Virus record (IMG/VR): IMGVR_UViG_3300042397_003635 | Direction: 5' to 3' (one strand) | Source of the DNA: a virus | Lineage: Duplodnaviria > Caudoviricetes | Length of the DNA stretch: 64,000 bases | Shown here: positions 21,635 to 51,884 of the stretch, piece by piece | Position numbering within the stretch: the first letter of the stretch is position 1 | Layout of the letters: each line of letters starts with the position of its first letter | Made by a program: the position numbers and the translations under genes | Notes under the pieces: generated by a model | The model's input: the letters and a program-made list of their open reading frames with translations, nothing else | Told to the model about the DNA's origin: nothing | Databases searched by the model: none

Positions 21635-22072
21635 TTATAATCTTGAACCTAATTCATTAAATGCGCCAGTTGCAATAGCTCGGCCATCTGCAACTGCTTG
21701 TGACCAACGATCCTTAACCAAGAATCCATTTGACAAATAGTTGTCTAGATAATTATGGATTGGACAGCCTCGACCAGTTTGTTCCTGCCACCAACTATCT
21801 AATTCGATAAAGGCTTCTTCTGGTCCAGCAATAGCAACTGTTTGTGCAATTGGCTGGGTCCTCGATCTAAATACTTTAACAACAAGTACAACCAATCCAA
21901 GCTCAACCAACTTTTCTTTAAACTCTGCTTCATCGACTAGGCCACTTAGGAGTTTACCATGCAGATCAATGCGTTTAGTTGTAATACCACCTTCACCAAG
22001 ACCTAGATCTTGAAGCCTTTGCCAAGTAGCAAAGGAAAATGATTCGGATATAGTATGGCGATTAATCAACAC
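21635..22072 (-). CDS. Hypothetical protein with RLxDLGL motif
   Basis: MLINRHTISES..QRLQDLGL. Confidence 0.55.
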   Translation of the reverse strand: MLINRHTISESFSFATWQRLQDLGLGEGGITTKRIDLHGKLLSGLVDEAEFKEKLVELGLVVLVVKVFRSRTQPIAQTVAIAGPEEAFIELDSWWQEQTGRGCPIHNYLDNYLSNGFLVKDRWSQAVADGRAIATGAFNELGSRL

Positions 22073-22736
22073 GGCGCTCGCTAAATAATTGGTCTATCTT
22101 TTGTACAACTTTCCAAGGATCGCTTGAGTCAATTGACTCTTCCCTTACTGGATCCTTGCTTGAGTGCCACAAGATTCGTAGAGTACCAGGCTCTGCACCA
22201 TAGTCGCTAACTGTAAAGTTATAGTAGTTAGGATATTTCTTTTGGTGACGAGCTCCCATTCGCGAAAGATAAGTCGACTCTGCTTCCCAACGTACCAATT
22301 CAATATTAAGAGAGCCGTCCGCTGATTTGCTCCACTTCCAGCGTCTGCGTTGAATAAGATCCTCAACCGCATTTAGGGCTGAGTCAGCAAGACCCAAGTC
22401 CTCTAGTCGGCGCTTGTCAATATGTTGCTTTTGAATCTGATCCCACTGTTCGGGGTCAAAGCCCTCATTTTTCTTTAATTGACGTTTAACCTCTTCACGA
22501 ACCTTTTCCATTTTTTTGGCATAGGCTGGATTATCTCCACGATTAAAGACAATTTGCTGGTTTAGGGAACCAGTAATTTTACGCATATCACCCTTACGGC
22601 TAGAGATAAGCCACTTTGCTAGGGCCTTGATTCCAAGATCGCGGAATCGGCCATTGGCATCGGGTGCATCTGAGTCTTTCCACTCTGGGCGCCTTGCCTC
22701 ATTAATCCAAGCTGTGAATGTTTTAATTGAAGACAT
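22062..22736 (-). CDS. Putative internal head protein (two domains, RLxDLGL motif)
   Basis: MSSIKTFTAWINEA; internal RRLEDLGL. Confidence 0.6.
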   Translation of the reverse strand: MSSIKTFTAWINEARRPEWKDSDAPDANGRFRDLGIKALAKWLISSRKGDMRKITGSLNQQIVFNRGDNPAYAKKMEKVREEVKRQLKKNEGFDPEQWDQIQKQHIDKRRLEDLGLADSALNAVEDLIQRRRWKWSKSADGSLNIELVRWEAESTYLSRMGARHQKKYPNYYNFTVSDYGAEPGTLRILWHSSKDPVREESIDSSDPWKVVQKIDQLFSERRVD

Positions 22737-22743
22737 ATTCTAT

Positions 22744-23136
22744 TTAGATTTTTGTAAATTTAACACCAACTCCTAGGGTAGTATGGTCAACTGATTTACC
22801 ATTAGCAAGATCAGGTAAGATTTTGGTTAGATCGTCATACTCTACCGTATATGGATCAACGCCGCCCTGTACAGTACGACCAATTTGCATGCCGCCGTCT
22901 CCTAATTTCTTAAGCCAATTAAAATTAATTGCATATTGGTTATTAAGAGCAACTCCAATTATTTTGTAATTAAATACTTTGCCAGCACCGTTCTTAACTG
23001 CAATTGCATTGCCGCCTTTGTCCGCTGCCTTTGAAATAGTAGCCTTTACTGGATTTGCCCAGCTAATTGACCCTGGTCCAGGTACAGCTACATCAGCATC
23101 TTCCCGTAACCAACCTTCAAACAATTTTACCCACAT
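22744..23136 (-). CDS. Putative internal head protein
   Basis: MWVKLFEGWLRED; late promoter at 23159-23167. Confidence 0.6.
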   Translation of the reverse strand: MWVKLFEGWLREDADVAVPGPGSISWANPVKATISKAADKGGNAIAVKNGAGKVFNYKIIGVALNNQYAINFNWLKKLGDGGMQIGRTVQGGVDPYTVEYDDLTKILPDLANGKSVDHTTLGVGVKFTKI

Positions 23137-23158
23137 AATAGAATTAGTCTATTTCTTA

Positions 23159-23180
23159 TTATTTATCCCCCAAATAAATA
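23159..23180. promoter_or_regulatory. Back-to-back T4-late-like promoters
   Basis: ttatttatc (minus-strand GATAAATAA) and AATAAATA (plus) separated by 5 bp between divergent genes. Confidence 0.65.
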
Positions 23181-23202
23181 GCTATAACAAGACCATTATA
23201 CT

Positions 23203-23832
23203 ATGAATCATAACTATTACTATATCCTCTTAGGAAAAAAGGCAGGTGGACCGGGTACCCAACCCACATCTAACTGTTCGGACTCTCTACAATTTAGATA
23301 CTATTCAATTAATACTCCAGCTGGCCAAAGTGGCGATTGGTATTATGGTATATCGGATCCAGATCCTGCGCTTGCCTGGTCAGGTCTGGTCTTTGGCGGA
23401 ATCGTTGAGGTATGGGCTTCAACTCAAGTCCTAGAGGTCGGTACAAAACTCTATACGGACCAAGCCCAAACCCAAGAAATAAGGGCAGTAGATGACGGTG
23501 CGCAATTCAGGATAGAGGCAAATCTCTTTACCTATAAGGTTGGGCTTGGTATTATGGCGATTACCCAAATGGCTGAACCCCCTGATATTCAAATCAGGAT
23601 GAGCGGACCGGAGCCTGGTTCCTGTGCCCTAAGCGGACCCTATACCCAAACCGTATGGGTTGCCAGGGACCTGTGGCAGCAAGTTGACCGGGTATGGCTA
23701 GACCCTGCCCTAACCCAGCCCTATGTAGGCGGTGATAACTGGTACTATGCTGATGATACTACTATTCCAGCAGCCGGTACAACCTTACAGATTAATAACT
23801 GCGGTTGGGTTATTGGCTTCTATGCTTGCTAG
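23203..23832 (+). CDS. Putative structural/tail-associated protein with internal repeat
   Basis: Two related Trp/Tyr-rich modules (VWASTQVLEVGTKLYTD / VWVARDLWQQVDRVWLD); late promoter upstream. Confidence 0.45.
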   Translation: MNHNYYYILLGKKAGGPGTQPTSNCSDSLQFRYYSINTPAGQSGDWYYGISDPDPALAWSGLVFGGIVEVWASTQVLEVGTKLYTDQAQTQEIRAVDDGAQFRIEANLFTYKVGLGIMAITQMAEPPDIQIRMSGPEPGSCALSGPYTQTVWVARDLWQQVDRVWLDPALTQPYVGGDNWYYADDTTIPAAGTTLQINNCGWVIGFYAC

Positions 23833-23846
23833 TTCTAGGCTTTTTT

Positions 23847-23872
23847 CCGCCTCTAAACTTCGAGGGGCGGCT
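23847..23872. terminator. Hairpin terminator, possibly bidirectional
   Basis: CCGCCTCT-AAACTTCG-AGGGGCGG flanked by T-rich runs. Confidence 0.55.
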
Positions 23873-24008
23873 CTTTACCTATAATATGGGTACTGGTATC
23901 TAGACTACTCTTATTTCTATAGATACTATCTCTACTTATATTAATAATAGAAAGAACAAGCCTAACCCTATACCAGCCAGTCTAGACTCTTCTCTATATT
24001 ATACCTAT

Positions 24009-24196
24009 CTCTATATAGACCAGACCCTACCAGACCGGGACTACGGAGTACTCTATATAGACCAGACCCCAGCCAGCCAGTATACCTATAACCGGGACTA
24101 CGGAGTGCCGCCTGCCAGCCGACCCAAAGGAGTCCACTTGGTCCAGCTTAAGGACTACGGAGTGGTGCGTCTCTTCGTCGGGGCCCGCTACGGAAA
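24009..24196 (+). repeat. Direct-repeat cluster (ACCGGGACTACGGAGT x2, CTCTATATAGACCAGACCC x2, ACTACGGAGT x3)
   Basis: ACTACGGAGT at 24040, 24097, 24154 (57-bp period), variant at 24187. Confidence 0.8.
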
Positions 24197-24293
24197 TCCT
24201 CGGGGTCGGGCGACCGCAGGAGAATCGGACATTAGGTAGAAGCTTGTAGACACCGGGCGCCAGGCTGTCTACTAGTCTGGTATAAATAACCTT

Positions 24294-24929
24294 ATGAAGA
24301 AGCAAGACATACCCCAGCCAGACTCTATACCTACTGGCAGTCTGGTATCGCGAAAGATCGCAGCCCAGAGACTAGGTGTAACCTTAAGAACACTAGACCG
24401 CTATATAGAGCAGGGTAAGCTAAGTCCCTATAAGAACAGGGTTAATGGTAGACTCTATATAGACTCAGACCAGATACTCTATCTACTAGGGAGTAGGGTA
24501 CCCCAAGACCGGTTGGTTATAATATATTGTAGAACGGCCCCCATTCCGGACTCTGGAGCCTCGGGAATCTCCAGCGCGACTCGTCTCAAGGAGCAGGTAG
24601 ACAGGGTACAGGGCTATTGTACGGCTAGGGGAATCCGGGTCGATGAGGTAATCCAAGAGGTACGTCGCGCGAATAGACTAGATGATAATGCACCGGGCTT
24701 GAATAAGATTATGGATTTAGTTGTACGCAAGAAGGTCAGTACCCTGATAATAGAGACCCCAGACAGGCTTGCTCGTTTTCTTGCTTGGGATATACTCGAA
24801 CGTGTCCTTATCTATCATGGTGTAGATGTACATATAATCCAGCCCAAGGTCGGGCGGCAGGAATTCGTCGACGAAATAAAGGAAGAATTAGTAGATATAA
24901 TAGCTAGCGCCAAGGAGCTCGGCATATAA
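24294..24929 (+). CDS. IS607-family TnpA-like serine recombinase, apparently lacking the catalytic Ser
   Basis: MerR-like HTH (AAQRLGVTLRTLDRYIEQGKL); resolvase domain IIYCRTA (canonical YARVS), LKEQ, IIETPDRLARF, EELVDII. Confidence 0.8.
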   Translation: MKKQDIPQPDSIPTGSLVSRKIAAQRLGVTLRTLDRYIEQGKLSPYKNRVNGRLYIDSDQILYLLGSRVPQDRLVIIYCRTAPIPDSGASGISSATRLKEQVDRVQGYCTARGIRVDEVIQEVRRANRLDDNAPGLNKIMDLVVRKKVSTLIIETPDRLARFLAWDILERVLIYHGVDVHIIQPKVGRQEFVDEIKEELVDIIASAKELGI

Positions 24930-25285
24930 TTAAAAACTTTAATATAGAGCAGAGTAGTATAGACCATTAGTCCACCTCCCCTAGAGAGAGGTAGGTCGGA
25001 GTATACTCTCCTGGATCTCTATGCGGGGTCCAGCCCTGGTCGGAGTTCTTGTCCTTATACCTATAGCTAATATACCACTTTTCCATGACACTGGACAATT
25101 TTTTTAAATAAAGTTATTAACAATTTCCCGGGCCTCTATTAGGCGGACATTTCTCCAGGGGCCGGGGATCCCCACGGAGCGGGGTGCGTAAAAATACCTA
25201 TGCCCCGTCGGCATGGCCCAGGGGTTTGGGCCTATTTCTATTATACCTATTTCTAATAAATAATTGCAAATAACCCGGTCTAGAT

Positions 25286-25414
25286 ATGGCAGCAAAGAAA
25301 GGCGCTACCGCTGGAACCCCCTTCCGAGTAAAGGTAAAGAAGGTTGGCAAAGCGAAGAAGAGCTTCGGTCCTAAGGAGCAGAAACCTAAGAAGTACGTAG
25401 GACAAGGTCGATAA
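25286..25414 (+). CDS. Small basic late protein ending YVGQGR (42 aa; not in ORF track)
   Basis: Read manually: MAAKKGATAGTPFRVKVKKVGKAKKSFGPKEQKPKKYVGQGR; AATAAATA at 25255-25262. Confidence 0.7.
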   Translation: MAAKKGATAGTPFRVKVKKVGKAKKSFGPKEQKPKKYVGQGR

Positions 25415-25611
25415 GCCCGGGCCCGGGCTCTAGACAAAAAAGAAAGGGACCGCTTGCGCAGATCCCTTTGGGTTAGCTATCGAAACGGTCTAGATTTAAA
25501 TAGCTGGATAAGAACTCCAAGATCTTATACTGGACTACGGAGTACGGTTTTAACTAAAAAAGAAAAAGGCCCTCTTTCGGAGGGCCAGCTTCTAATCAAT
25601 CAATCATCAAA

Positions 25612-26733
25612 CTATATAGTAGCAAACTGTGCTGCTTCTAAATCATAGTTACTCTTAGCGAAGAGACTTCCACCTGCTGCTTTAAAGCGTGCACGGTTTT
25701 CATACTCTTCTACTGTGTTATGGCTACCTAACCAAGTCAACTCGTTAACAAGATCCCATACACTCATACCTGTCTTGATAAAGCTTTTCTGCTTGTCAGT
25801 CAAGAAATCCGGGTTATGACCTGCATTAAATACTCTGGCCATAGTAGACTTGTACATTGGGAAGTGGTTGTCTACTACGCTTTCCTGTAGACGGCGTCTC
25901 ATTTCAGGATCCTCATGTTTAAGGTTACCTACTACGGAGTCCACCGCTCTTTGTACCTCGCTTAGACTTGCTCGTGTACCAGTTGCGCGTTCCAATCTTT
26001 CAGAGAAGGCACGCGGTACAAAACCATTCTTACCATAAGCTTTAAGGGATTGGAATAACTCGGCAATACCTTGAGCATTTGCCTGTTTTAATTGGAAGGC
26101 CGCTGTCATGTCTTTAGCTACTGCTCCATTAGCACATACTAATCTGTAGAAGAAATCATCTACCTGAGTTTGTGTAGGGTTATTCACCAAAGAGATTCCG
26201 AAACGGAAGACCTCGTCTTTACCGATACGTTCGAAACCTACTTCGCTGGTATGGATAAGGTTAATACGGCTAGTGCCGCCACCATTGTCAATAGACTCGA
26301 TATGCATGTCAGGAACCTCGTTAAGGATCTCCTCTGCAGTTTTAAATAGAGTCTCATTAGAGATACGTGCAAACTTGTCAGCTTTCACGATACCTGTTAC
26401 TTCGCGCTGATCGCGGTTAGCGACCATCATAAGAGGAACATCTCCACCTCTACGCTCTGTATAATGTTTAACTGCACCGATAAGTTTATTACCGATTGCT
26501 GCATCACCGTTCTTCTCAAACTTAGAGTTTAAGGTTTGGTTGATGTTAAGTAGGGAAGCCAGCTGTTTGAAAAACGCGCCGCTAGCTGGGACCCTTGAGT
26601 CATTCAAGTGGATGAAGCCATCCTTCTGTGAATTGTCACTCAATTTGATCTCACTTAGCATTACGGGTTTTGTCAGCGGTTCAGACTTGATTGCGGCTGC
26701 TTTTGCCTCGTTGAATTGTGCTTGTGATAACAT
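25612..26733 (-). CDS. DUF932-like protein
   Basis: FRFGISLVNN..FFYRLVCANGA motif typical of DUF932. Confidence 0.6.
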   Translation of the reverse strand: MLSQAQFNEAKAAAIKSEPLTKPVMLSEIKLSDNSQKDGFIHLNDSRVPASGAFFKQLASLLNINQTLNSKFEKNGDAAIGNKLIGAVKHYTERRGGDVPLMMVANRDQREVTGIVKADKFARISNETLFKTAEEILNEVPDMHIESIDNGGGTSRINLIHTSEVGFERIGKDEVFRFGISLVNNPTQTQVDDFFYRLVCANGAVAKDMTAAFQLKQANAQGIAELFQSLKAYGKNGFVPRAFSERLERATGTRASLSEVQRAVDSVVGNLKHEDPEMRRRLQESVVDNHFPMYKSTMARVFNAGHNPDFLTDKQKSFIKTGMSVWDLVNELTWLGSHNTVEEYENRARFKAAGGSLFAKSNYDLEAAQFATI

Positions 26734-26787
26734 ATATTCTATTTGGTTTTTTTGGTTAATATTATTATACTAAAGAGGAGAGCAGAA

Positions 26788-27906
26788 TTACTGCTCTACC
26801 TCAACTTTATTTTCTTCAGTAAATTCAGTTGGCTCCTCTACTGATGAGGTTTGCAAGGTTGCGCTTAGGAATAGATCATCGAACTCGCTCTCTAATTCTT
26901 CTCGCCTTGCCTCTTCTGTGTGGGCTACCTCTTCAGCTCGGACTAGTTGGTCCCAACTTGCTTGGTCGTAAACTACTTGACCGTCGGCCATTGAGTAGAA
27001 GAGAGGTTTATTTACTAAGCTTCCGCCTCGACGATTCTTTGTAAACTCTAGGTATCTACGATTTCCTGGTCCAAACTTAATCTCCATCATAGAGGTTGTA
27101 GCATGCTTAAGATAAGTAGAACCTACATAGGTACCGCCCTTCGTCATGTGCTGAATACAGAAGATTGATTTACCCATACCATCAGCAGCTTTGATTACAA
27201 GATTAGTTAACCATGCCTCTGCGTAGGTTGACTTCCAGCCTAAGACATCTTTTAGCTTTACAATAATATCTTGGTGCGAGTCAATTAGGATTACATCGTG
27301 TTCTCCAGTCAAGGCCTTTTCAATTGCTTTCACAAAACCCGTTTGAATATAATCCATTAGCAAGAGGGTAGGAACCTCTGCGATAATTGGCATTTTACGG
27401 TAGTAGAAGAAAAGGTCATTACGCGTCATCTCACTAGAAATATACAAGACCTTTGCTTCAGGTTGATTGCGTTTAATCTTCGCCAAGATATCTAGCATCA
27501 CTGTCGACTTACCTACACCTGATTCGCCGATTACAATATTAGCAGTACCGCCATAGATACCTCCACCTTCTTCGTGGTCTGAGAATAGCTTGTCTAGCAA
27601 GGTACCTGTCTTAAAGCATTTAAAATCGGGGAAATCCATGTTTCCAATCTCAACAATCTCCAACTCAACTTCCTTTGCAGCTGCGGATGGGGTTGCAACT
27701 ACTCTGCTTGTTTGTGTTACCTCAGCTACCGTTTGAGGGCCACGCAGTTTTTTAATAACTCCATTAAAAAGGGAGTAAGAGATTCCCTCGCCTAGAGGAT
27801 GGGTTTGAAAGTTTTGGAATAGATCCAATACCTTGCCGGTTGGAACTTCGCCGCTGAATTCCTGTGTAAAATACTTGCGGACTTGGACTTCTTTTTTTCC
27901 GATCAT
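26788..27906 (-). CDS. RadA/Sms-like RecA-fold ATPase (no Zn finger or Lon domain)
   Basis: GESGVGKST (Walker A), VLYISSE, ILIDS (Walker B), HMTKGG, KNRRGG (KNRFG-like). Confidence 0.8.
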   Translation of the reverse strand: MIGKKEVQVRKYFTQEFSGEVPTGKVLDLFQNFQTHPLGEGISYSLFNGVIKKLRGPQTVAEVTQTSRVVATPSAAAKEVELEIVEIGNMDFPDFKCFKTGTLLDKLFSDHEEGGGIYGGTANIVIGESGVGKSTVMLDILAKIKRNQPEAKVLYISSEMTRNDLFFYYRKMPIIAEVPTLLLMDYIQTGFVKAIEKALTGEHDVILIDSHQDIIVKLKDVLGWKSTYAEAWLTNLVIKAADGMGKSIFCIQHMTKGGTYVGSTYLKHATTSMMEIKFGPGNRRYLEFTKNRRGGSLVNKPLFYSMADGQVVYDQASWDQLVRAEEVAHTEEARREELESEFDDLFLSATLQTSSVEEPTEFTEENKVEVEQ

Positions 27907-28087
27907 ATGTTTGATTTTTAATTGATTACTATTATTATACTAATGCAGAGTAGTTATTGGCACTGCTCTTTAGTTTATCTATTTACTACGGAGTCCGGCC
28001 TTGGTCTAAACTGCATAAGCTAATATAATAAAAAAACCCCAAACTAAAAAATCTGGGGTTAATTATTTTTGGAAAAGTTATTAACAA

Positions 28088-28342
28088 TTATTCGATCGTT
28101 TGGACCATGTCCCTAAGTACTGCACACTTCTCGTATTCTTCCCTGTCTTGGAAGTATTGAATCATAGAGTTGAGTGCTTCCTGTTTTTCAAAGGTTGGGG
28201 TCTGGTCGAAGATCGCGCCGCTAAGCTCGTTCTGTAGAGCATCGTATAACAGATTCATGAACGCATCGAAATCTGTATGGCGAAGACTTACCAGCTCGGC
28301 TAGCATTTGGGAAGTCTTAAGGTCTCGTTTTATTTCGTTCAT
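28088..28342 (-). CDS. Small protein with UVR (UvrB/UvrC) motif
   Basis: YFQDREEYEKCAVLRD. Confidence 0.65.
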   Translation of the reverse strand: MNEIKRDLKTSQMLAELVSLRHTDFDAFMNLLYDALQNELSGAIFDQTPTFEKQEALNSMIQYFQDREEYEKCAVLRDMVQTIE

Positions 28343-28403
28343 TGTACAGGTTATTTATCTTGTTATTAATATACCCAATCTACTAGGGAGTAGGCCAGGT
28401 CTA

Positions 28404-28784
28404 TTACCACCATGAGGTGTAATAGACATATTCTCCAGCCGCGATCGCCTCTCTCGCTTCTCTAATAAACTCGAGGTCGCCTTTAATTTCGTCCTCATCC
28501 AATTGGCTATTACCAAAGAAGAAGCCGGCAGTTTGGGGTAATTGACCCTCTTTAATATGGCGCTCTAGCTGGTCCAAATCGTCGAGGTCTACTTCAACAT
28601 TTACACAGTTGAAGCTATCAGCTGTACCGCCTTTAAGGTAATACAAGCTTTCCATCCAACCGTGCAGGTTAGGGTGCTTACGCCAGTAGTGAAGCTCTCT
28701 GTCTTCAACTCCTTCTTCGCTTTTGAAATCTACTGCAGTTTCTGGTTTGGTACTGCGAACCTGTGCATACATGTCTAATCCCAT
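28404..28784 (-). CDS. Conserved hypothetical phage protein
   Basis: MGLDMYA..YWRKHPNLHGWM..FNC..TAGFFFG..VYYTSWW. Confidence 0.75.
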   Translation of the reverse strand: MGLDMYAQVRSTKPETAVDFKSEEGVEDRELHYWRKHPNLHGWMESLYYLKGGTADSFNCVNVEVDLDDLDQLERHIKEGQLPQTAGFFFGNSQLDEDEIKGDLEFIREAREAIAAGEYVYYTSWW

Positions 28785-33878: not shown

Positions 33879-34595
33879 TTAGTTAAAAGCTTTACGTAGT
33901 TTGTGACGAGCTAAGCGAAGAGTTTGATTCACTTTAGAAATTTCCATTCCTAATTCATCAGCAGTTTCTTTAGCAGAGCGAGCTTCGCCTCTGTCGATTC
34001 CATAGAAAGTTTCGATTACCTTACGGTCATGGTCATTTAACTTGTTTAGCACTGCTGCAACTTGTTGCTCAACACTTTGCTCTTCAAATGGATCTACAAA
34101 ATCTGCACGAAGAATAAGATCACCTAAGGTATTATCTCCATCCTCGCCGATTGGGCGGTCTAATCTAATATTAGTAAGATTAATATCCTCACCAGCCATT
34201 TTGCGCTTGTAGATATCGTATTCCTGATTCATAGGCAAACGTACAGTACGTCCATACTCGCCAAGCGCAGTATTTAATTTCTTACGAATCCAAAACTGTG
34301 CATAAGTAATAAATTTAACATCTTTATCTGGAGTAAAACGACGAGCAGCTTCAATTAGACCGCAATTAGCTTCCATGATAAGGTCATCGATTGGTAGACC
34401 TAGTCCAATAAACTTATTCGCTAAGGTTACAGCGAACTTAAGGTTAGCATTTACTAGGGAGTGCAATGCTGCCTCGTCTCCGGCCTGAATCCGGATAGCT
34501 AATTCTTTTTCCGCAGCCTTGCTTAAAGGCTTCGCCAGTTTGTCAATACTCTTAAAGTATGCTGGTAAGTTAGATGATGCTTCAAATTTTGCCAT
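33879..34595 (-). CDS. RNA polymerase sigma-70 family factor (group 2/3-like; regions 1.2, 2, 4)
   Basis: YFKSIDKLAKPLSKAAEKEL, LVNANLKFAV, DDLIMEANCGLIEAARRF, KFITYAQFWIR, C-terminal HTH. Confidence 0.9.
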   Translation of the reverse strand: MAKFEASSNLPAYFKSIDKLAKPLSKAAEKELAIRIQAGDEAALHSLVNANLKFAVTLANKFIGLGLPIDDLIMEANCGLIEAARRFTPDKDVKFITYAQFWIRKKLNTALGEYGRTVRLPMNQEYDIYKRKMAGEDINLTNIRLDRPIGEDGDNTLGDLILRADFVDPFEEQSVEQQVAAVLNKLNDHDRKVIETFYGIDRGEARSAKETADELGMEISKVNQTLRLARHKLRKAFN

Positions 34596-40059: not shown

Positions 40060-40485
40060 ATGAATAAGATTAAATCGTTTAAGGAATACCTAGTAGAGTC
40101 TGCTGATATAGCTCAGCTTGCTCAAGACCTAGGTGGTACAGTGGAACCTGTAGAGGGCCAGACAGACTGGTCAGCAGTTAGAGGTTATCTAGATGTTAAC
40201 CGTGAAAAACTTAAAGAAACCCTTATCAAGATAACTGGTGATAGGATAACTGCAATGGTAGTTATTAAGGTTGCAGATATCTATGCTGAAGACAAGCGTG
40301 ATGGGGTAACTCCAAATCCAGACTGGTTAGGAGAAGCTCCAATCGTAGATGAAAACACGCCAGATCTACAAGAAATGGTTAAGGTGGTTATTGCGGCTAT
40401 TCAGCGTAATCTAGCTAAATCAGATCCAGCTACCCTTGCTAAGTTGAGTACTGCAGGTAAAGGGATTAAAACAAGCCGTTATTAA
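40060..40485 (+). CDS. Putative internal head protein
   Basis: MNKIKSFKEYLVES; AATAAATA at 40028. Confidence 0.6.
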   Translation: MNKIKSFKEYLVESADIAQLAQDLGGTVEPVEGQTDWSAVRGYLDVNREKLKETLIKITGDRITAMVVIKVADIYAEDKRDGVTPNPDWLGEAPIVDENTPDLQEMVKVVIAAIQRNLAKSDPATLAKLSTAGKGIKTSRY

Positions 40486-40488: not shown

Positions 40489-41493
40489 GTGAAGTATATT
40501 AAACCCTATCAATTATTTGAATCTGCCGAATCTCTATATAGAGAGGTTGGCTGGAAGGAGTGGTGTCAGATTGCGGATCTGGGTAGATTCCTTGCTAAGC
40601 TAGATACGGGTAACGGAACCGGTGCTAGTTCTCTAGGTGTAGATTCGATGGAGATCGATGGAGACCTGGTCTACTGGAGTTGCAATGGAGTGGACCGTCA
40701 AGATCCTATTAAGGACTGGAGCCATGCTGAAGTTGGTTCTACTATAGATACCCGACCAGTTATTATACTAGATATTGAATTAGGGCCCCATAAGTTATCC
40801 GGAGTTCCAATAGCCCTAACCGATCGTTCTGACAAAAGTACACCTGTCCTGGTTAACAGGGACCTACTATCACAGCTAGGGGTTGTTGTAGCACCTGACC
40901 GCGAATTCCTATTAGGAGAATCCCAAGAAGAGGTTGACCAAGCTAAACGTCTCCTAGACCTAGGCCTAATGGAACCTCAAGATTATAAACAAAAATTACG
41001 GGAACTTGGCTGGGACAAGCGGTATCGTAGCGAATTTGTTGAATCACTTGAAAAGCTATTTGCGGATCTAGGATTAGAGTGGCGAAACTGGGCAACCGAT
41101 CGTCAAAAAGCAAACGGTACTGTACTCCTCAAATTTAGTCCAGCTGATGCAGTTGAATTACTCTTTACTGCCGATTTACCAAGCGGCTTGACCCCACGTC
41201 AGGAGGTTAGATTCAGGAATATTAAAGAAAGATTGGTAGGGGTTAGGCGCGAAATGGAAATGGATTCGACTGTAAGAGGCCGTTCTGCCTTTGAATACTG
41301 GATTTTTCCAGGCTCATTCCGCCCAAGCGGTCACTTTGGTGAACCTACCTCCAGTGAAACGGTAAAGTTTAGTGATGGAATGGATCCCCAAGCGGTTATG
41401 GCCAGATTCCTCTACCAAGTTGCTCTGGATGCAGACGCCAAGGCCTGGTACTGGAATCCTCAGCACCCCCACTATGCATGGGCAAGACGATAA
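40489..41493 (+). CDS. Retropepsin-like (RimK-associated, 'ATP-dependent Zn protease' family) domain fused to an unknown domain
   Basis: AKLDTGNG..RPVIILDIELG..LTDRSDKSTPVLVNRDLL; capsid-targeting-like start; KRLLDLGL. Confidence 0.7.
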   Translation: MKYIKPYQLFESAESLYREVGWKEWCQIADLGRFLAKLDTGNGTGASSLGVDSMEIDGDLVYWSCNGVDRQDPIKDWSHAEVGSTIDTRPVIILDIELGPHKLSGVPIALTDRSDKSTPVLVNRDLLSQLGVVVAPDREFLLGESQEEVDQAKRLLDLGLMEPQDYKQKLRELGWDKRYRSEFVESLEKLFADLGLEWRNWATDRQKANGTVLLKFSPADAVELLFTADLPSGLTPRQEVRFRNIKERLVGVRREMEMDSTVRGRSAFEYWIFPGSFRPSGHFGEPTSSETVKFSDGMDPQAVMARFLYQVALDADAKAWYWNPQHPHYAWARR

Positions 41494-41863: not shown

Positions 41864-42529
41864 TTAGCCTTGGTGAACTGGTAACTTTGTATTGTCAACC
41901 GTCCAATTATCATCAGTAAACATTTTCTCAACATCAGCGATACTTTTCTCGCTGTGCGTTCTCCAAAAATCAACAATAGTTTTACCTTCAGTTGCCTCTT
42001 TATTAAAGGTAATTTCACCATGACCCCAAACGTCTCCTTTATCAAATCCTAACCATTTCATTAATTTAAATGCAGCTAGCACCTGTACTGGCAATACATC
42101 TGAATCATTTGACGCAATTACCTCAACCCCTTGAGCAGTATCATTTTCAAGATCAGATGGCGCGCCAGGCTTACGGTCTTTTTTTGCAGTACCTGCATGC
42201 CATGCAGTTAGGCCTTCTGGAAAAGTTCTAAATACCTTACCTTCGCGATCAATAACCCACTGTACGCCAAGATTACGATTATTTAGAATATCCACTACAT
42301 CTTCAGCTTTACCTCGACCTGCAGTATGGTGAACAACAAAATATTTTTCCTTGTTTTTCATTGGACGTAGAGAGGATTGGTGTGCAGTATCAGATAAATC
42401 TTCAATGTCACCCTCAAACTCTTTAAACTCTGTGTTATCTGAGCCAAATGAAGATTTAGCAGCAACTCCGGTAAATAGTTGCGCAACATCGCTCAACCAA
42501 CCTTCAAATAATTTTACGTGCTTAGCCAT
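41864..42529 (-). CDS. N-acetylmuramoyl-L-alanine amidase (Amidase_2) with capsid-targeting-like N-terminus
   Basis: FVVHHTAG, QWVIDREG, AWHAG, QGVEV, VWGHGEI; starts MAKHVKLFEGWLSD. Confidence 0.85.
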   Translation of the reverse strand: MAKHVKLFEGWLSDVAQLFTGVAAKSSFGSDNTEFKEFEGDIEDLSDTAHQSSLRPMKNKEKYFVVHHTAGRGKAEDVVDILNNRNLGVQWVIDREGKVFRTFPEGLTAWHAGTAKKDRKPGAPSDLENDTAQGVEVIASNDSDVLPVQVLAAFKLMKWLGFDKGDVWGHGEITFNKEATEGKTIVDFWRTHSEKSIADVEKMFTDDNWTVDNTKLPVHQG

Positions 42530-44966: not shown

Positions 44967-45000
44967 ATTAAATCTACTTTGGTTAAATTTAATATACTAA

Positions 45001-45372
45001 CTATTCTGCACTTTTAGCACGTTCGTATTGCTTTAGGAATTGCCAAGTAGATTCATGGGAATAGCAGATAGGTTCACCATTTTCATCATGAGCTCCCCAT
45101 CTTTCACCTTCTACTTTAACCAATTTGCCGTCCACTTTTTTATAGCTTGGAGTTTGGCTAAAATCCTTTTGACCAAAGTCAGCTTCCCACATAAACCAGG
45201 TTAGCCAGTCAACACCCTCGGGAGTCCAGATTTCACCCAATAAGTTATGGATGATTTGACTATAAGGATCAGTAAAATCTATCAGGTCGACCCCTAATTT
45301 ATTGAGTTCTTCTAATTGTCTACTTGTTTTTTGTAAACCTAAGGTTAGCTTTAAGAAATTTTCGTATGTCAT
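45001..45372 (-). CDS. Hypothetical phage protein
   Basis: EGVDWLTWFMWEADFG. Confidence 0.6.
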   Translation of the reverse strand: MTYENFLKLTLGLQKTSRQLEELNKLGVDLIDFTDPYSQIIHNLLGEIWTPEGVDWLTWFMWEADFGQKDFSQTPSYKKVDGKLVKVEGERWGAHDENGEPICYSHESTWQFLKQYERAKSAE

Positions 45373-45608
45373 GCTTTATTATAGATTTTTTCTTCTAGAA
45401 ATTTTAAGAGTTGACGCTTTTCACCAAACGATAAGCCATCAGCCATTGCCAAATCCAATTCATCCTCAGTTGAAATATCACACAATAGATCCAGTTCTTC
45501 TTCACTGATTCTACAAGTCTCCTTAATCATGGAATCAAATAGTCCAAAGATTCCGCCGTTTCGGTCTTCTCCTAAGTAGACCCCTTTTCTTGATAGTCTA
45601 GTATTCAT
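45369..45608 (-). CDS. Hypothetical protein
   Basis: 79 aa, coupled. Confidence 0.55.
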   Translation of the reverse strand: MNTRLSRKGVYLGEDRNGGIFGLFDSMIKETCRISEEELDLLCDISTEDELDLAMADGLSFGEKRQLLKFLEEKIYNKA

Positions 45609-46213
45609 TATGCTATGTATAAAATTGTTGGGTTATCCTTGTGTACGTCAATATCAGGAAACTCTTCCCTAAATTTTTGCAGATTAAATGGAGCACTAAT
45701 AATATGGATTCCACTTTTAGTTTTAATAAATTCCATATAGATTGGATTGCCAGTTTCGGTTTGTAATTCAATAATTCGGCGTCTAATCTGAATCATGCTA
45801 GGCTGATGATTAAACCCATCAATTGAAATATTATCAATATCAATAATCCATTTCTTATTGGGCTCATTTGCATAGGCTCCACACACTGATTCATACGCCT
45901 TACGAACTGACGCAAAATCCTTGTTCATAATTTGATCAGTAACCTTTTTTAGGGTATGAAAAGCCATTTTTTCAAATGAGCGACGATTAAGATTAATACA
46001 TGCTCTTGCTCCATGAAAATTGCACAGTGCAATAATTTCTGGCTCGACTTTTGCTAGGTGCTCTTCAGATTTAATGTAATATGTCTTAATAACCAAAGAG
46101 TTAGAGCCAATTTCAGGATGGTCCTTTTTTCGTTTGATTATTTGTAGATGATAAAAATCATCGCCACTCCTAAATTGGAGCATTTTTAAAATTTGTTGAA
46201 AGTTATTAGTCAC
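45608..46213 (-). CDS. Hypothetical protein, possibly AEP (Prim-Pol)-like
   Basis: WIIDID and KTKSGIHII resemble the AEP DxD and SxxGxH motifs. Confidence 0.4.
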   Translation of the reverse strand: MTNNFQQILKMLQFRSGDDFYHLQIIKRKKDHPEIGSNSLVIKTYYIKSEEHLAKVEPEIIALCNFHGARACINLNRRSFEKMAFHTLKKVTDQIMNKDFASVRKAYESVCGAYANEPNKKWIIDIDNISIDGFNHQPSMIQIRRRIIELQTETGNPIYMEFIKTKSGIHIISAPFNLQKFREEFPDIDVHKDNPTILYIA

Positions 46214-46524
46214 TAGTCGTCGATTTTAAAGGTTAAAACCTTCCAGTTAAAGTTAAACCAAACTTTAATCCAGATTAGGTTAAAACCAATATACCAACTT
46301 GGTGATAGGTTTGACTTATTAAACATAGCCTTGCCCTTTAAACGAGTCCCTACTGCCATATCCTTTTTAAACCAAATACCTAATTCATGTCGACGATGCC
46401 ATAGCGTAATGTCATCCATTAGCTTGGTAGAATATTCAGAATTTTTGTACGACTCCCACTTGTGTCGAATTACCATGGTCGTTTGAAAGTGACCTAACTT
46501 AAGAGTTTTAATTATGCCAGCCAT
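46213..46524 (-). CDS. Hypothetical protein
   Basis: 103 aa, coupled. Confidence 0.55.
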   Translation of the reverse strand: MAGIIKTLKLGHFQTTMVIRHKWESYKNSEYSTKLMDDITLWHRRHELGIWFKKDMAVGTRLKGKAMFNKSNLSPSWYIGFNLIWIKVWFNFNWKVLTFKIDD

Positions 46525-46922
46525 TGATTAACTATTTGTATTAATAAGTATGAAAGTTTATATCCAACAAAAGCGCCTAGTGCACTTGGGATTGGAAAGA
46601 CTACGAGTTTACCAAGATCGGTTACATATTTTGGGCGATTAACAATTCTGCCCATAAAGAAGTAATATGTAATATAGCCAACTAAAACTGCAATATCAGT
46701 TCGAGTTGCAATAAAAACAACTAGGGTTGCACCGATAAAACCAAATAGGAAATTATCCCTAACCCCTTCCCAAACCTCAGCTCGGGTTGCGCCTTGCCAG
46801 TCTTTAACAATTTGCTGTAGTTTTGTTTTATTTTTCATTTTAAATTTCGGATATATTTCCGTTTTTATATTTGAACTTGGCCCTTTGAGTTTTTGCCATA
46901 GCTCCCAATTGATAATCGACAT
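46512..46922 (-). CDS. Hypothetical membrane protein
   Basis: Three hydrophobic segments. Confidence 0.55.
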   Translation of the reverse strand: MSIINWELWQKLKGPSSNIKTEIYPKFKMKNKTKLQQIVKDWQGATRAEVWEGVRDNFLFGFIGATLVVFIATRTDIAVLVGYITYYFFMGRIVNRPKYVTDLGKLVVFPIPSALGAFVGYKLSYLLIQIVNQWLA

Positions 46923-46993
46923 AATATATTATACTTAAGTTTTAGTAAGTCGGCACTAATAAATATCTCTATAAATCATAAAATCTTTGACTA

Positions 46994-47404
46994 ATGAAAT
47001 ACGCTAAACCCTTTACTCAATTTATAAGTGAAGCTCGAGCAGATATGACGCCAGCTGAATTGGAAATGCTGGATAGAATCGAAGCTAGAACTAGAGAAGC
47101 TTATCCTGAAACCTCGCCTGACGAAAAGAAAATTGACTCCAGACTTAGAGACCTAGGTCTTGCTCCTAAAGAAGAGTTCGATGACCGTTGGGATAATATG
47201 GTCGACGAGTGGGGTAGTGATCCTGAAATTAGCCGCGCAATTGATGTACTTAAGTCTCGTACAAGTGCAATCATGAACAAATACATTGACTATGGCGATC
47301 CAGAAGATGAGGCCAATTACGATCAGCGTAGAGAATGGATTTGGGAAGCTTCAATCGATGATATTGGATTCTTAGAATTTATGATTGCCCAAGGCGATAT
47401 CTAA
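46994..47404 (+). CDS. Putative internal head protein (RLxDLGL)
   Basis: MKYAKPFTQFISEA; SRLRDLGL; AATAAATA at 46958. Confidence 0.6.
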   Translation: MKYAKPFTQFISEARADMTPAELEMLDRIEARTREAYPETSPDEKKIDSRLRDLGLAPKEEFDDRWDNMVDEWGSDPEISRAIDVLKSRTSAIMNKYIDYGDPEDEANYDQRREWIWEASIDDIGFLEFMIAQGDI

Positions 47405-47619
47405 TTTTTAACTGGCACCTTACGTGCAACTTGCGGTTTTTCTATTTTTATTTTAATTGTGTCTCCAGCTTGATGAGGAGTTCGGCAATACACAGTTCCT
47501 TCAATACAGGTTTCTGCATCATATACATTATATTGGTAGGTACCTTGAAAATCTGGTGTACCTGTTCCAGATGTTACGATTAATACTAGATACGTAACAA
47601 TTTTTCCTAATTCTATCAT
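47401..47619 (-). CDS. Hypothetical protein
   Basis: 72 aa ORF. Confidence 0.45.
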   Translation of the reverse strand: MIELGKIVTYLVLIVTSGTGTPDFQGTYQYNVYDAETCIEGTVYCRTPHQAGDTIKIKIEKPQVARKVPVKN

Positions 47620-47690
47620 AATTCTATTATACCTAATCTCTGGTAAAGAGTATTAGATCTGGATAAATAACTACAAATAAGATATACTTA

Positions 47691-48320
47691 ATGTCATACT
47701 TCAAAAAATTTGGTGAATTTCTTAATGAAGATGAATCTTCGGAAGAACAATTAGCCAAACTAGCTAGATTAAAGGACCTTGGTTTGCTTGACACAGATCA
47801 ATATAGACAAGATTCCAAGAATATCCGAAAGGATGTAATGCTTGCTGCTAAAGACCGAGGAGACTATGCAGGAACAGCTCTTCCAGAAATTAGAGAAATA
47901 TTAGATTCTCCAGAAGCTCAACTACTAAGGGACAAAGGTCTTGAAGTAGTTTCAAGTCCAACTCAACTCTTAAATGGTACCCTTGTTTGGGCAAAACCTG
48001 GTTATAGAAGATCAGATGGTTGGGGTCTAGGATTTTTTCCTGGCCCAAGTAAAATACGCAGAATGACTCCAAAGGGAATTAATATTGGAGTATGGGGCCG
48101 CAGAGTAGGTTCAATGGATGTTGAAATGAAAGCTATTCCAAAATCAGCATATTCTAATGAGGCTGAATTTTATAGAGTTGCAATGAAGTGGGCAGCTGAA
48201 CATATCGATTGGGATCAATTAGAAATGGCTGAAAGACAGAGCCGCGAAGCTTGGAGATATTACGTAAAAGGAAAAACAAAACAAGGTTATTTTAACGATG
48301 AGAATAATAGAATCATTTAA
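47691..48320 (+). CDS. Putative internal head protein (RLxDLGL)
   Basis: MSYFKKFGEFLNED; ARLKDLGL; GATAAATA at 47662. Confidence 0.6.
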   Translation: MSYFKKFGEFLNEDESSEEQLAKLARLKDLGLLDTDQYRQDSKNIRKDVMLAAKDRGDYAGTALPEIREILDSPEAQLLRDKGLEVVSSPTQLLNGTLVWAKPGYRRSDGWGLGFFPGPSKIRRMTPKGINIGVWGRRVGSMDVEMKAIPKSAYSNEAEFYRVAMKWAAEHIDWDQLEMAERQSREAWRYYVKGKTKQGYFNDENNRII

Positions 48321-49929
48321 TAGCTGGAAACGTTCGGACAGACTCTTAAACGAGAATGTTCAGGCAGCTAAACAATATATGTTAAAACGTTTTGCTCAAG
48401 CAAAAGGAATTGAATCTTCTGAAATTACGCCAGAGGATCAAGCTAGAATTTTTGCAAATGAAGATTATAAAAAAGTTTTACAGTTAATTCAGCCACTTCC
48501 TGGTTATGCATCAACCTTTGTCAAATTTAAATTTGATCATAGAGTTTCATTTGAGCAATTAGCAGAATTGCTTGAGAAAATTAAAGCAAATTCCCAATTT
48601 TTAGGGGAATTATCAATGCCAATTATTGAATTTCCAAATCAAAAGGAAGTAAATGGAGTTTCTCCATTTGAGGCGCTAATAGATGAGTTTAATCAAATTG
48701 AAACCCGTCGTAAAGCAAAATGGATTCTTAACGAATTACCAGGAAATTTACGTAGAGCAGCTAGAGAATTACCAAAAGAAGATCTACAGAGACTTTTTAA
48801 TGCAGCAACTATTATGAATGATTTGGGTCAAGAAGTTAAAGTGCGTTTGTTAAAAAAGGCAAAGGCTTTTACTAATCCAATTGATTTTATAGTTTATGCT
48901 GAAAATTATGTTAAAGGTTACCTAAACTCTGACGTTCAAAGTAAAATTGATAAATTAGAACAATTAGAACCAGAAGGCTCTGTGATTTATGCAGATGATC
49001 GTTACCTAATGTTAAGCGCACGTACAGAAAAGGCGCAAAAGGAATTATGCTCAGTTGCAAACTGGTGTATTAATAGAGGAAGTTTTAATAATAGAGGTTA
49101 TGGTGGAAGCGCTGTACAAATTAATACATTTGATTTTGGTTTACCACCAACTGATCCTCATCACCTAATTGGTACAACTATTTCATATGAAGGAAAGGTT
49201 ACATATAGTCATGATATTAACGATAGGAGTGTTAAGACAACTGATGATATTGCAACACACCTTAAGAAATTTGGTTATCCAGATAAAATGATTAACACAT
49301 TAATTCAGGTTTTTCCAATTGAGGCCATGATTAAAAAGGTAATTACTGAACTTAGTATTGATAAAAAATCTCCGATTCAAGTTCTTGATTCAGTTATTAA
49401 AGCAAGTTATAAAGTAAATCCAGAAGACGATCAAGAATCAGCTAGAGTAATTCTTAATATCCTAATGGAGAGAATTGCACCAGCTGTTAAAGAAGAAGAA
49501 ATTATTGCACTCTACATGAAGTTCGGTGTAATGTCAATTTTCTCTGCTAAACTATTTAATATGTTATTACCTAATATTAATCCTCAAACAAGATCTGAGG
49601 TTATTCAAAATGCAAAGGCGATTCTTGATGAAATTAAAGGTTATGCAAGCACCGGTTTATTTAAATATCCACAATTGCTAAATGCAGTTAAGAGCGAACC
49701 TAAAATTATAGAATTACTTGGTGAAAGTATAGTAAATGAATTTTATGCAGCTGAACCTGCAATTAAAGAACCTACTACAAAACCTAAAGTAACTCCAAGA
49801 CCAGGTCCAATTCCAACTAAAAAACCATCAGTTAACCCTGAACCAAGCGCAACTGCAGAAGATGTAGTTAATGTATTTTTAGCTGAATTAAAAAAATTAG
49901 GTACTACACCAAAGGAATTCCTTAAGTAA
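48298..49929 (+). CDS. Putative internal head protein (large)
   Basis: MRIIESFNSWKRSDRLLNEN; Pro-rich C-terminal linker. Confidence 0.55.
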   Translation: MRIIESFNSWKRSDRLLNENVQAAKQYMLKRFAQAKGIESSEITPEDQARIFANEDYKKVLQLIQPLPGYASTFVKFKFDHRVSFEQLAELLEKIKANSQFLGELSMPIIEFPNQKEVNGVSPFEALIDEFNQIETRRKAKWILNELPGNLRRAARELPKEDLQRLFNAATIMNDLGQEVKVRLLKKAKAFTNPIDFIVYAENYVKGYLNSDVQSKIDKLEQLEPEGSVIYADDRYLMLSARTEKAQKELCSVANWCINRGSFNNRGYGGSAVQINTFDFGLPPTDPHHLIGTTISYEGKVTYSHDINDRSVKTTDDIATHLKKFGYPDKMINTLIQVFPIEAMIKKVITELSIDKKSPIQVLDSVIKASYKVNPEDDQESARVILNILMERIAPAVKEEEIIALYMKFGVMSIFSAKLFNMLLPNINPQTRSEVIQNAKAILDEIKGYASTGLFKYPQLLNAVKSEPKIIELLGESIVNEFYAAEPAIKEPTTKPKVTPRPGPIPTKKPSVNPEPSATAEDVVNVFLAELKKLGTTPKEFLK

Positions 49930-49930
49930 T

Positions 49931-51226
49931 ATGAAAACACTAAAACAATTTTTACAAGAGGCAAGTTTACAGGGAAATCCTGGAACACCCGATCAATACC
50001 TAAAGGGAGTTGAACGCAGAGCAATGCAAGATGTTCAAGGAACTGAACAAAGACTTGGAAGAGAAATGAGTCAGTTTATGCAATTTGTTTCTCAAGTGCA
50101 AAGAATGCAAACTCCTCAAGTTAAAGCACAATTAGAAAAACTTGCAGAAGATATTATAATGAAAGAGTATGGATCAATCTTAACTCAAACTAAATTAAGT
50201 ATTAAATTTGCAAAGGCTGGAGAAATCCAACAAATGATGGAAGAGGTTCCTATGGAAACACCAGAACCCCAAAAAGAAATTGAAGATCAGGCAACTATTT
50301 CAAAAATCCATGCTAGAAAAATTGGTAACGCAATTATGCAAGGCGAGGCTAAAAATGCAAAGCGTATGTTAGCTTTACCTGAAACCATGGATGGTATGAT
50401 TAAAATTTTTGGACCAGCGGACGCTGCAAAAATGGTAGATCTTCTTAAGAAAATTACAGACATTGCCTCTGCTCTTGATTGGAGAATTCCAATGGAAGTT
50501 CAAAAGCAAATGTGGGAAAGAGATAAAGGCGGATTTAGCGGATCAGTTAAAGTTGATTTTAAACCAGTTGAAGCTGACGAAAAAACTGCAGAGGATCTTA
50601 TTAAATCTCTAGAAAGTGGTGATCTTGAAACTCAAGAAATAGAAGATACTTTAAATGAAATGGAGCCTACTATTACTGCAATTGGTACAGATTTTGCAAT
50701 GCTACTTCATGAAGCAATTAAAGGAATCTATAAATTAATTGGAACTGCTTCTATTCCAGATGATGAAGAAGAAGCTGGAAAGGTTGTTGCAAATACTGGA
50801 ACACTTAGTGATGAATTAGAAGATTTAAGATATGGACCCTACTTAGCAGCAGATCTTAGAGATTTTGTAAATCGATTTACCAATTCAAGTTCAGTTGAAA
50901 ATATCAGAGAACACGTTTTTGGAAAATTAATGATTCTTGCAAAAGAGGAAACTCAAGCATTTTTACAATTAATGAAAGAAATTTTTACTGAAGATGCTGG
51001 AGCAATTAATAAAATGAAATCGATTGTTTCAGAAATTGAACAAGAAATTAAGGATTGGGAACGCAGTCAATTTGATGAAGAGGTTCCAGACCTTGGAGTT
51101 GAACTGGTTGCCACTGAAACTGACCCATCTCAATTAAGTAAAAAGGACATTCAAGCCTTAATTGATGCAGCACTAGATGCTGGAGATTACGCTGAAGTTG
51201 GAAAACTTGCAAAATATTTAGATTAA
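49931..51226 (+). CDS. Putative internal head protein
   Basis: MKTLKQFLQEA; C-terminal UVR-like IDAALDAGDYAEV. Confidence 0.6.
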   Translation: MKTLKQFLQEASLQGNPGTPDQYLKGVERRAMQDVQGTEQRLGREMSQFMQFVSQVQRMQTPQVKAQLEKLAEDIIMKEYGSILTQTKLSIKFAKAGEIQQMMEEVPMETPEPQKEIEDQATISKIHARKIGNAIMQGEAKNAKRMLALPETMDGMIKIFGPADAAKMVDLLKKITDIASALDWRIPMEVQKQMWERDKGGFSGSVKVDFKPVEADEKTAEDLIKSLESGDLETQEIEDTLNEMEPTITAIGTDFAMLLHEAIKGIYKLIGTASIPDDEEEAGKVVANTGTLSDELEDLRYGPYLAADLRDFVNRFTNSSSVENIREHVFGKLMILAKEETQAFLQLMKEIFTEDAGAINKMKSIVSEIEQEIKDWERSQFDEEVPDLGVELVATETDPSQLSKKDIQALIDAALDAGDYAEVGKLAKYLD

Positions 51227-51227
51227 T

Positions 51228-51884
51228 ATGAAAATTCAAAGATTTAAACAATTTATAAATGAAAGCGAGGAATATCTCGATGAACCTGCAAAAGAAATGT
51301 TTAATGAGCTTCTAACTCAAATTGCAGATGAAATAGACGGTCAATCTGGCTGGATGGCTTCCGTAAATGAAAACTCTAGTACCCTACGTATTGACCAAGA
51401 TTGGAATATTGATGATTTAAACTATGAAGGCGATGAGCCTAGAGTTTATGCAAGTTATACTGCAACCTTTAAAATTGCTTTTCAAGATGATTCAACTCAA
51501 TTATCCCCAGAAGTAGTTAGACTTTGGAAATTAGGATTAGCGCCAATTACTGAATTAATTAAAGGATTCGATCATATTTGGGGTTTTAGTATTGATTCAA
51601 AGGATGTCCCAGAATTAGATATTCAAGAAGGAAATAGCGAATTTGAGTTTATGTCAATTGAAGATTTGACTGGAGGCGCAACTGCTGATTTAACTGACAT
51701 TGAAGCTTTTGCAACTGACTTAATTGAAACTCTTAATGGTTGGTTAGACGAACAAACTTATATGTTACACGATAGAGTTCAAGAAGAATTAGACATGATT
51801 TCTGGTTATGGTGATGACGACGAAGAAGAGGATGACGATGATTATGAAAACGATGATGACGATTTTTCTGAAGACGAAATTTAA
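51228..51884 (+). CDS. Putative internal head protein (acidic)
   Basis: MKIQRFKQFINES; VRLWKLGL; poly-Asp/Glu tail. Confidence 0.6.
   Translation: MKIQRFKQFINESEEYLDEPAKEMFNELLTQIADEIDGQSGWMASVNENSSTLRIDQDWNIDDLNYEGDEPRVYASYTATFKIAFQDDSTQLSPEVVRLWKLGLAPITELIKGFDHIWGFSIDSKDVPELDIQEGNSEFEFMSIEDLTGGATADLTDIEAFATDLIETLNGWLDEQTYMLHDRVQEELDMISGYGDDDEEEDDDDYENDDDDFSEDEI

Follow-up and report, generated by a model that had tools for sequence, protein, structure and literature searches.

The window analysed here is a 64-kb stretch (64,000 nucleotides) of the virus record IMGVR_UViG_3300042397_003635 in IMG/VR (Duplodnaviria; Caudoviricetes). It is AT-rich, with a guanine-plus-cytosine (GC) content of ~35%, and its source is an uncultured T4-like jumbo phage. 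Neither megablast of 40-52 kb nor tblastn of the product of open reading frame (ORF) 47691 found a match in cultured phage records. Six proteins of the window, the carriers, contain the heptad RLx(D/K)LGL, and five of them begin with a tag that resembles the capsid-targeting sequence (CTS) of phage T4. On balance, and with modest confidence, we favour the reading that the heptad is the sharpest part of a ~30-residue leader hairpin, which travels with the tag as an N-terminal cassette and for which a function is proposed below. Two relatives were used for comparison. G001 is an IMG/VR record of 142 kb, a 55% fragment, that overlaps the window at 37.5-64 kb with 84-99% identity. G002 is 217 kb long and 84% complete by CheckV, and the four carriers that it has in common with the window show 59-89% protein identity. 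The carriers, named by their lower window coordinate, and their parts are as follows.

47691..48320, plus strand: 209 residues, with the tag MSYFKKFGEFLNE (47691-47729), an acidic linker, the hairpin module (47733-47831) and the motif RLKDLGL (47766-47786).
46994..47404, plus strand: 136 residues, with the tag (46994-47032), an insert of ~35 residues, the module (47108-47206) and the motif RLRDLGL (47141-47161).
40489..41493, plus strand: 334 residues, with the tag (40489-40521), a Zn_protease-like domain at residues 20-141, the module (40915-41013) and the motif RLLDLGL (40948-40968).
40906-40920, plus strand: internal tag remnant FLLGE of 40489.
40993-41013 and 41056-41076, plus strand: further caps KLRELGW and LFADLGL of 40489.
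51228..51884, plus strand: 218 residues with a net charge of -49, with the tag (51228-51263), the module (51486-51584) and the K-variant motif RLWKLGL (51519-51539).
21635..22072, minus strand: 145 residues from a GTG start, with the motif RLQDLGL (21998-22018) at residues 19-25.
21893-21913 and 22022-22051, minus strand: second cap KLVELGL and non-canonical N-terminus ISESFSFATW of 21635.
22062..22736, minus strand: 224 residues, with the tag (22698-22736), a conserved N-terminal domain containing the cap RFRDLGI (22629-22649) and the motif RLEDLGL (22389-22409), which opens an added C-terminal part.
22077-22097, minus strand: tag-like IDQLFSE at the C-terminus of 22062.

Some carriers have features of their own. 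The N-terminal part of 40489 (40489-40910, plus strand) resembles the retropepsin-like "putative ATP-dependent zinc protease" family PF05618 just under the cutoff (E 2.8e-5, 24.5 bits), and G001 has a different segment at the place of 40489-40910. The product of ORF 51228 has a stretch of ~25 Asp/Glu residues at its end, a type of tail that its homologues also have, and this acidic product could be a DNA mimic or a charge-balancing cargo. The GTG start of 21635 overlaps the stop of 22062 in another frame (22062-22072, minus strand), and the tag-like IDQLFSE ends 22062. The GTG assignment is tentative, and coupling or frameshifting between 21635 and 22062 may occur. The modules are neutral to acidic, with net charges from 0 to -5.

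A six-frame regular-expression search of the window for RLx[DK]LGL returned exactly six matches, all in frame inside the ORFs for which the preliminary description had named them, and no further match in any of the six frames. The amino-acid composition predicts 0.005 matches. Per-protein shuffles (n=2000) never gave more than one match, and the reversed pattern had none in the window proteome. Because the pattern had been picked after the data were seen, a census of all 7-mers with one wildcard was added as an unbiased check. RL.DLGL was the top pattern of this census, with five proteins, and the runner-up was the tag itself, with three; shuffled proteomes reached a maximum of two, rarely three. 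One could suppose that a common helix cap merely recurs by chance or composition, since h-x-x-h-G-h is a common cap pattern and this loosest form is mildly commoner in tagged proteins than elsewhere (3.1 vs 1.7 per 1000 residues). The excess over the composition estimate, the census rank and the shuffles, which never reached the observed number, refute this explanation, and we give it practically no weight. Codons vary at every motif position between copies. Being free to differ in this way, they place the conservation at the protein level and not in a recent DNA copy. A DNA-level signal (a palindrome or CTAG inside the motif) was ruled out on the same variation and on the frequency of CTA, which at 23% of Leu codons is not unusual here. 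A clamp-binding or eukaryotic DLG-type motif was dropped, the required residues not being common to the copies.

The tag is an N-terminal amphipathic stretch of ~10 residues that ends in (L/I)-x-E, like the T4 CTS. A position-specific scoring matrix (PSSM) for it, trained on 22 N-termini of the window (99.9th percentile of the null, 8.2 bits), gave at least 8 bits for 21 of 110 window ORFs and 24 of 262 ORFs in G002. The enrichment test used a cut of 7.4 bits, which yields 22 tagged ORFs in the window and 25 in G002. The preliminary description had taken all six carriers to be capsid-tagged; five of them pass the PSSM, and 21635 fails, its N-terminus ISESFSFATW being non-scoring. The motif is carried by 5 of the 22 tagged but only 1 of the 88 untagged window proteins (Fisher p 0.0011). 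In G002, the pattern [RK]L.[DEKNQ]LG[LIVMFW] has seven matches in tagged proteins (5.6 k residues) and one in untagged proteins (63.5 k residues, an eleven-fold larger pool; binomial p 1.8e-7). The genome-wide search and the enrichment test against the tag, both proposed in the preliminary description, thus show that the motif is far from equally frequent in untagged proteins.

The description had also noticed no copy in untagged ORFs. This holds as a strong enrichment in both genomes, but a few looser copies lie outside N-terminally tagged proteins, in window ORF 28835 and in 61240 and 165764 of G002. The copy in 165764 is a relaxed RIHDLGL with an internal tag 40 residues upstream, and the N-terminal tag test scores this protein as untagged. 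The product of G002 61240-61965 (minus strand, 241 residues) is without a canonical N-terminal tag and contains a segment, FYVDLGLITQHDY, that resembles the module well, so proteins with an N-terminal tag are not strictly the only ones to have the unit. Two degenerate copies were found by translation behind tags of the window.

40117..40137, plus strand: LAQDLGG, directly behind the tag of ORF 40060; not significant by profile, a possible weak member only.
62522..62542, plus strand: FLNKFGL, behind the tag of ORF 62462; a possible weak member only.

Most instances, taken over every lineage found, have the Gly of the heptad at residue 22-41, which is 11-28 residues downstream of the tag. The earlier remark that the motif often lies shortly after an (L/I)-x-E site, both at N-termini and at domain junctions, was borne out, and the motif marks the start of the module. 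About a quarter of the tagged proteins carry the motif.

Conservation within the carrier families is described here by position relative to this Gly. In the 47691 family (22 homologues, down to 38% identity; consensus L..L..L.DLG.ID..E), G31 does not vary, and L24 and L27 hardly vary. In the 46994 family (23 homologues, down to ~28% identity), only two residues of the entire protein are invariant, and G55 is one of them; most of the remote homologues are ~105 residues long and consist of the tag, 3-8 residues and then xLRxLGLAP...F. The 51228 family (16 homologues, down to ~60% identity) has invariant R98, L99, L102, G103, L104, A105 and P106, and W100 and K101 are nearly invariant, with RLWQLGL and RLYKLGL as exceptions in one homologue each. 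Relatives of 21635 read RLQELGL (97% identity) and RINALGL (78% identity). Only four positions are deeply conserved: L(-4), a hydrophobic residue at -1, G, and another hydrophobic residue at +1. In deep homologues R(-5) and D(-2) vary, and many homologues have K, A, S, T, N, G or Y at -2.

These patterns bear on the possibility that L-x-(D/E)-L is itself read by the prohead protease, as a cleavage site in its E forms or as an uncleavable decoy in its D forms. The heptad does include L-x-E or L-x-D, and orthologues exchange the two acids (RLKDLGL vs RLKELGL, RLQDLGL vs RLQELGL). A gp21-type prohead protease is encoded in G002, where the domain PF03420 was detected with 50 bits (E 2.8e-14); it was found neither in G001, a 55% fragment, nor in the window itself. 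However, it is the G and the hydrophobic positions that are conserved and not the acid, as the range of residues at -2 indicates, and a helical, capped segment as predicted would be a poor protease substrate. We consider a protease-reading role very improbable. The PF03420 domain of G002 (157862-158215, minus strand, locus L075) lies in an open frame of 681 residues, compared with 198 positions of the Pfam model, and the protease may be fused to another domain.

AlphaFold (AF2) models were built on the family alignments of two carriers. The 47691 model (predicted local distance difference test score, pLDDT, 79) has helices at 17-29 and 35-55 joined by a loop at 30-34; in the 46994 model (pLDDT 87) the helices are at 42-53 and 62-74, with the loop at 54-61 between them. 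In both models helix 1 ends just before the Gly (at -1 or -2), and helix 2 begins after a loop of 5-8 residues. As modelled, the heptad is the last turn of a helix, the capping Gly and the first loop residue. This placement argues that it is not a peptide in a disordered stretch. The short linear signal envisaged earlier was not borne out, as both models put the heptad at a helix C-terminal cap that is followed by a turn and a second helix. Schellman-type helix C-caps form a general structural class with Gly at the cap and hydrophobic residues at -4 and +1. The modelled hairpin has the Gly, both hydrophobic residues and a helix ending at -1 or -2, and its pattern in the models is that of a Schellman-type cap, although membership in this class leaves the restriction to tagged proteins and the conserved R and D/E unexplained. 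In the proposed hairpin, an amphipathic helix would end with L-x-(D/E)-L and be capped by Gly, after which a hydrophobic residue would fold back. A short turn, often with P or D, would then lead into helix 2, which would usually open with an acidic residue and have an aromatic one seven positions after the Gly. The same cap is repeated nearby in several carriers (KLRELGW and LFADLGL in 40489, KLVELGL in 21635, RFRDLGI in 22062). Foldseek against the PDB gave no match for either whole-protein model. A complex prediction for 47691 (residues 15-209) with 46994 (residues 39-136) had a score of 0.00, which is evidence neither way.

The carriers had been called otherwise unrelated. BLASTP among the six found no similarity beyond short stretches around the motif. 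When the family alignments of 47691 and 46994 were compared by hhalign, 36 columns comprising the tag and the motif aligned (probability 79%, E 1.6e-5) and nothing further. A hidden Markov model (HMM) of the hairpin, with 33 positions, was built from these two families only and searched against 515 proteins. It matched the family of the 40489 C-terminal part (E 8e-5 to 4e-4, with 24-29 positions aligned), the G1_3292/G2_11962 family (E 8e-4 and 0.016) and G2_177777 (E 0.008). Its 13 best matches are all in tag-initial proteins, nine of them by the PSSM threshold and four, below the threshold, by eye; the sub-threshold proteins (G1_3292, G1_3798 and G2_12615 products) begin with MKY[IL][KT][PK][YF]R. 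A match to the 1149-residue P0214 was rejected as a low-complexity repeat artefact. ORF 51228 shares LGLAPxxE(L/F) with 46994. By sequence profile, then, 40489, 46994 and 47691 share a mini-module of ~30 residues, and 21635, 22062 and 51228 share the heptad only. The claim of wholly unrelated carriers fails for the former three, and homology of all six over a full domain was found only in part, for three carriers and over the mini-module rather than a full domain.

Comparison of gene arrangements indicates how the module moves. In G001 the counterpart of the 40489 C-terminal part is encoded by a gene of its own, which opens with a tag immediately ahead of RLLDLGL. ORF 40489, which is arranged as tag, Zn_protease-like domain and FLLGE-SQEE...RLLDLGL, corresponds to two separate tagged genes in G001, and the blastn breakpoints between them lie at window 40523, just after the first tag, and 40911, just before the linker. 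In G002, 11962 has an extra N-terminal domain ahead of what is a tag-initial gene in G001 (3292). Compared with its remote homologues, 46994 has the ~35-residue insert between tag and motif, and its G002 orthologue (18379) has two module copies. For 22062, nine of ten viral-contig relatives match residues 1-91 only and then stop, and the C-terminal part occurs in only one relative (75% identity), which reads RLQDLGL; this carrier is a widespread 95-residue protein plus an added C-terminal part that opens at the motif. To judge from these alignments, the internal copies are products of fusion or insertion at tag/module borders. The cases of fusion and fission and the breakpoints at cassette borders indicate that the tag and the hairpin behave as a cassette.

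A structural leader element inherited with the tag is the most likely explanation of the hairpin. It would normally follow the capsid-targeting-like tag and the (L/I)-x-E site after a short acidic linker, and tag and hairpin would constitute a single N-terminal cassette ahead of differing cargo domains. Removal of the tag by a T4-type prohead protease would make the hairpin the first folded element of the mature protein. The hairpin may act as a common handle by which the tag and the cleavage site are kept away from the cargo domain. Contact with a shared partner in the prohead core is a further possibility. Several points weigh against this explanation. The hairpin HMM gave no support for 22062 (E 0.11), 51228 (E 0.5) or 21635 (E 8), and these three copies may be independent helix caps or very diverged members. 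The models are read as boundaries of helices and loops, and the packing of the predicted hairpin on the cargo domain is not readable from them. The packaging of the carriers in the head and their cut sites are predictions from sequence. A further point comes from the lineages, each of which has its own version of the heptad, common to its non-homologous carriers.

Window lineage (loci window, G001 and G002): R-L-x-[DE]-L-G-L.
Lineage X (loci L055, L056, L064 and L072): [QH]-L-x-[DE]-[LI]-G-[MF].
Lineage Y (loci L068 and L069): [QEG]-L-x-[DE]-L-G-L-[AI]-D.

All 10 of the distinct modules in the window lineage have R at -5, and none of the 8 in lineages X and Y has it (p 2e-5), a difference that a pure spacer role of the hairpin would not predict. 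At +1, the four modules of lineage X have M or F, and 17 of the 18 modules from elsewhere have L (p 7e-4); these lineage counts are not phylogenetically independent. The orthologous families of 47691 and of the 40489 C-terminal part changed in the same way between lineages. The contigs of the remote 46994 homologues are only ~1.6 kb long and yielded no further lineages. The concerted changes are a lead rather than proof; they suggest either a partner common to the carriers or homogenisation between cassettes.

It is therefore conceivable that the hairpin is a true second address or docking element, whose exposed face (R at -5, D/E at -2) would be read by one partner, such as the prohead core or scaffold, the portal or a host target after ejection, and would sort a subclass of the tagged cargo. 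The strong restriction of the motif to tagged proteins, the lineage-specific states at -5 and +1 across non-homologous carriers and the two orthologous families that changed alike are consistent with this, and the codon differences between copies make recent DNA homogenisation unlikely. On the other hand, deep homologues conserve the structural cap positions only and not R(-5) or D(-2), the lineage counts lack phylogenetic independence, and the docking partner is hypothetical. Furthermore, 16 of the 22 tagged window proteins are without the motif, and T4-type targeting needs the tag only (PMC3012670). We regard a docking role as possible but doubtful. The more specific proposal that the hairpin co-evolves within each lineage as a second address element, all cargo hairpins owing their common exposed residues to recognition by a single prohead or portal partner, seems to us rather improbable. 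If it were true, a subclass of CTS cargo would be sorted to a place, a copy number or an order of ejection, and the T4-type head would have a two-part loading code. The preliminary description had proposed a docking, sorting or ejection signal or a mimic of a host interaction motif. No result demonstrates docking, sorting or ejection, although the concerted lineage changes leave room for a shared partner; nothing found points to host mimicry.

We compared the leader hairpin with known families. The nearest is SHOCT (PF09851), a domain of ~30 residues with two amphipathic helices and a conserved Gly between them, which is attached to many domains and whose function is unknown (PMC3581485). The hairpin as modelled likewise has ~30 residues, two helices, a short loop and a strongly conserved Gly. 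It has the same L..L..L...G spacing, the same distance of seven residues from G to an aromatic residue, and usually an acidic and then an aromatic residue early in helix 2 (PMC3581485). SHOCT has a strongly conserved Glu in helix 2; an acidic residue at G+5 or G+6 is common here but not invariant. The SHOCT HMM matched 47691 at residues 19-40 with 12.2 bits (E 0.16) in the whole protein and 15.8 bits (E 0.012) in the segment, and in the six-frame translation of the 142-kb G001 this unit was the sole place that it picked out, at 14.5 bits. The hairpin could accordingly be a diverged member of SHOCT that shares the binding role of that domain. Yet all of these scores are far under the gathering cutoff of 27 bits, only 1 of 19 module segments was matched and 18 were not, and a profile search of PDB sequences gave nothing significant. 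The location also differs: 89% of the proteins with SHOCT have it at the C-terminus (PMC3581485), but the hairpin is N-terminal, with the Gly at residue 22-41, and tied to a phage capsid tag. Membership in SHOCT is quite unlikely in our opinion.

The SAP domain (PF02037) matched 1 of 19 segments, with a non-significant E of 0.036. SAP and other helix-extended-loop-helix (HeH) domains resemble the hairpin in that helix 1 ends with x-L-x-x-x-G-L and is followed by a second helix. The loop of the hairpin is shorter, and SAP/HeH domains are basic DNA binders, in contrast to the neutral to acidic modules. The CTS of T4 is sufficient for the loading of foreign proteins, and no other element is conserved among the diverse internal proteins of that phage (PMC3012670). 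Like the T4 proteins IPI-III and Alt, the carriers begin with a CTS-like tag that ends in (L/I)-x-E, and the close relative G002 has the gp21-type protease domain. The difference is that the hairpin is a second element behind the tag, present on about a quarter of the tagged proteins. The hairpin profile had no match at E<=1 in six frames of T4 (AF158101), compared with seven in G002, and the unit is therefore not part of the classic CTS. PHROGs had no family for any of the six carriers, the hairpin profile gave only chance-level rows against PDB sequences, and a feature search of the ESM Atlas with the hairpin segment gave no usable match. The hairpin could not be placed in any described family. 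The earlier designation of the motif as previously undescribed agrees with this outcome in Pfam, where only the weak SHOCT match was found, in PHROGs and in phage T4.

Foreign proteins are loaded into T4 heads by means of the capsid tag, which is regarded as the sole feature common to internal proteins. With a second conserved unit behind the tag, the set of proteins that uncultured jumbo phages package and inject would be read from sequence more precisely. The unit described here is on about a quarter of the predicted cargo in a large freshwater phage clade, and T4 does not have it. In fused cargo proteins it would also indicate where domains meet and where the mature protein is likely to begin, and it provides a concrete, mutable element for the study of how cargo is positioned, counted or released. 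Even if it is a structural cap only, it is a useful annotation marker for the clade.

Other genes of the window deserve mention. At 41864-42529 (minus strand), a tagged protein (MAKHVKLFEGWL...) has an N-acetylmuramoyl-L-alanine amidase domain (PF01510, 43 bits), and would be a cell-wall hydrolase in the predicted head cargo. The stretch at ~20000-28000 has a GC content of 0.41-0.45, compared with ~0.35 elsewhere, and encodes a serine recombinase with a helix-turn-helix (24294-24929, PF00239, 40 bits) and a P-loop ATPase (26788-27906); a mobile element may have inserted here. At 33879-34595 (minus strand), the phage encodes a sigma-70 family factor with regions 1.2, 2, 3 and 4, and sigma genes adjoin carrier genes in remote relatives too.

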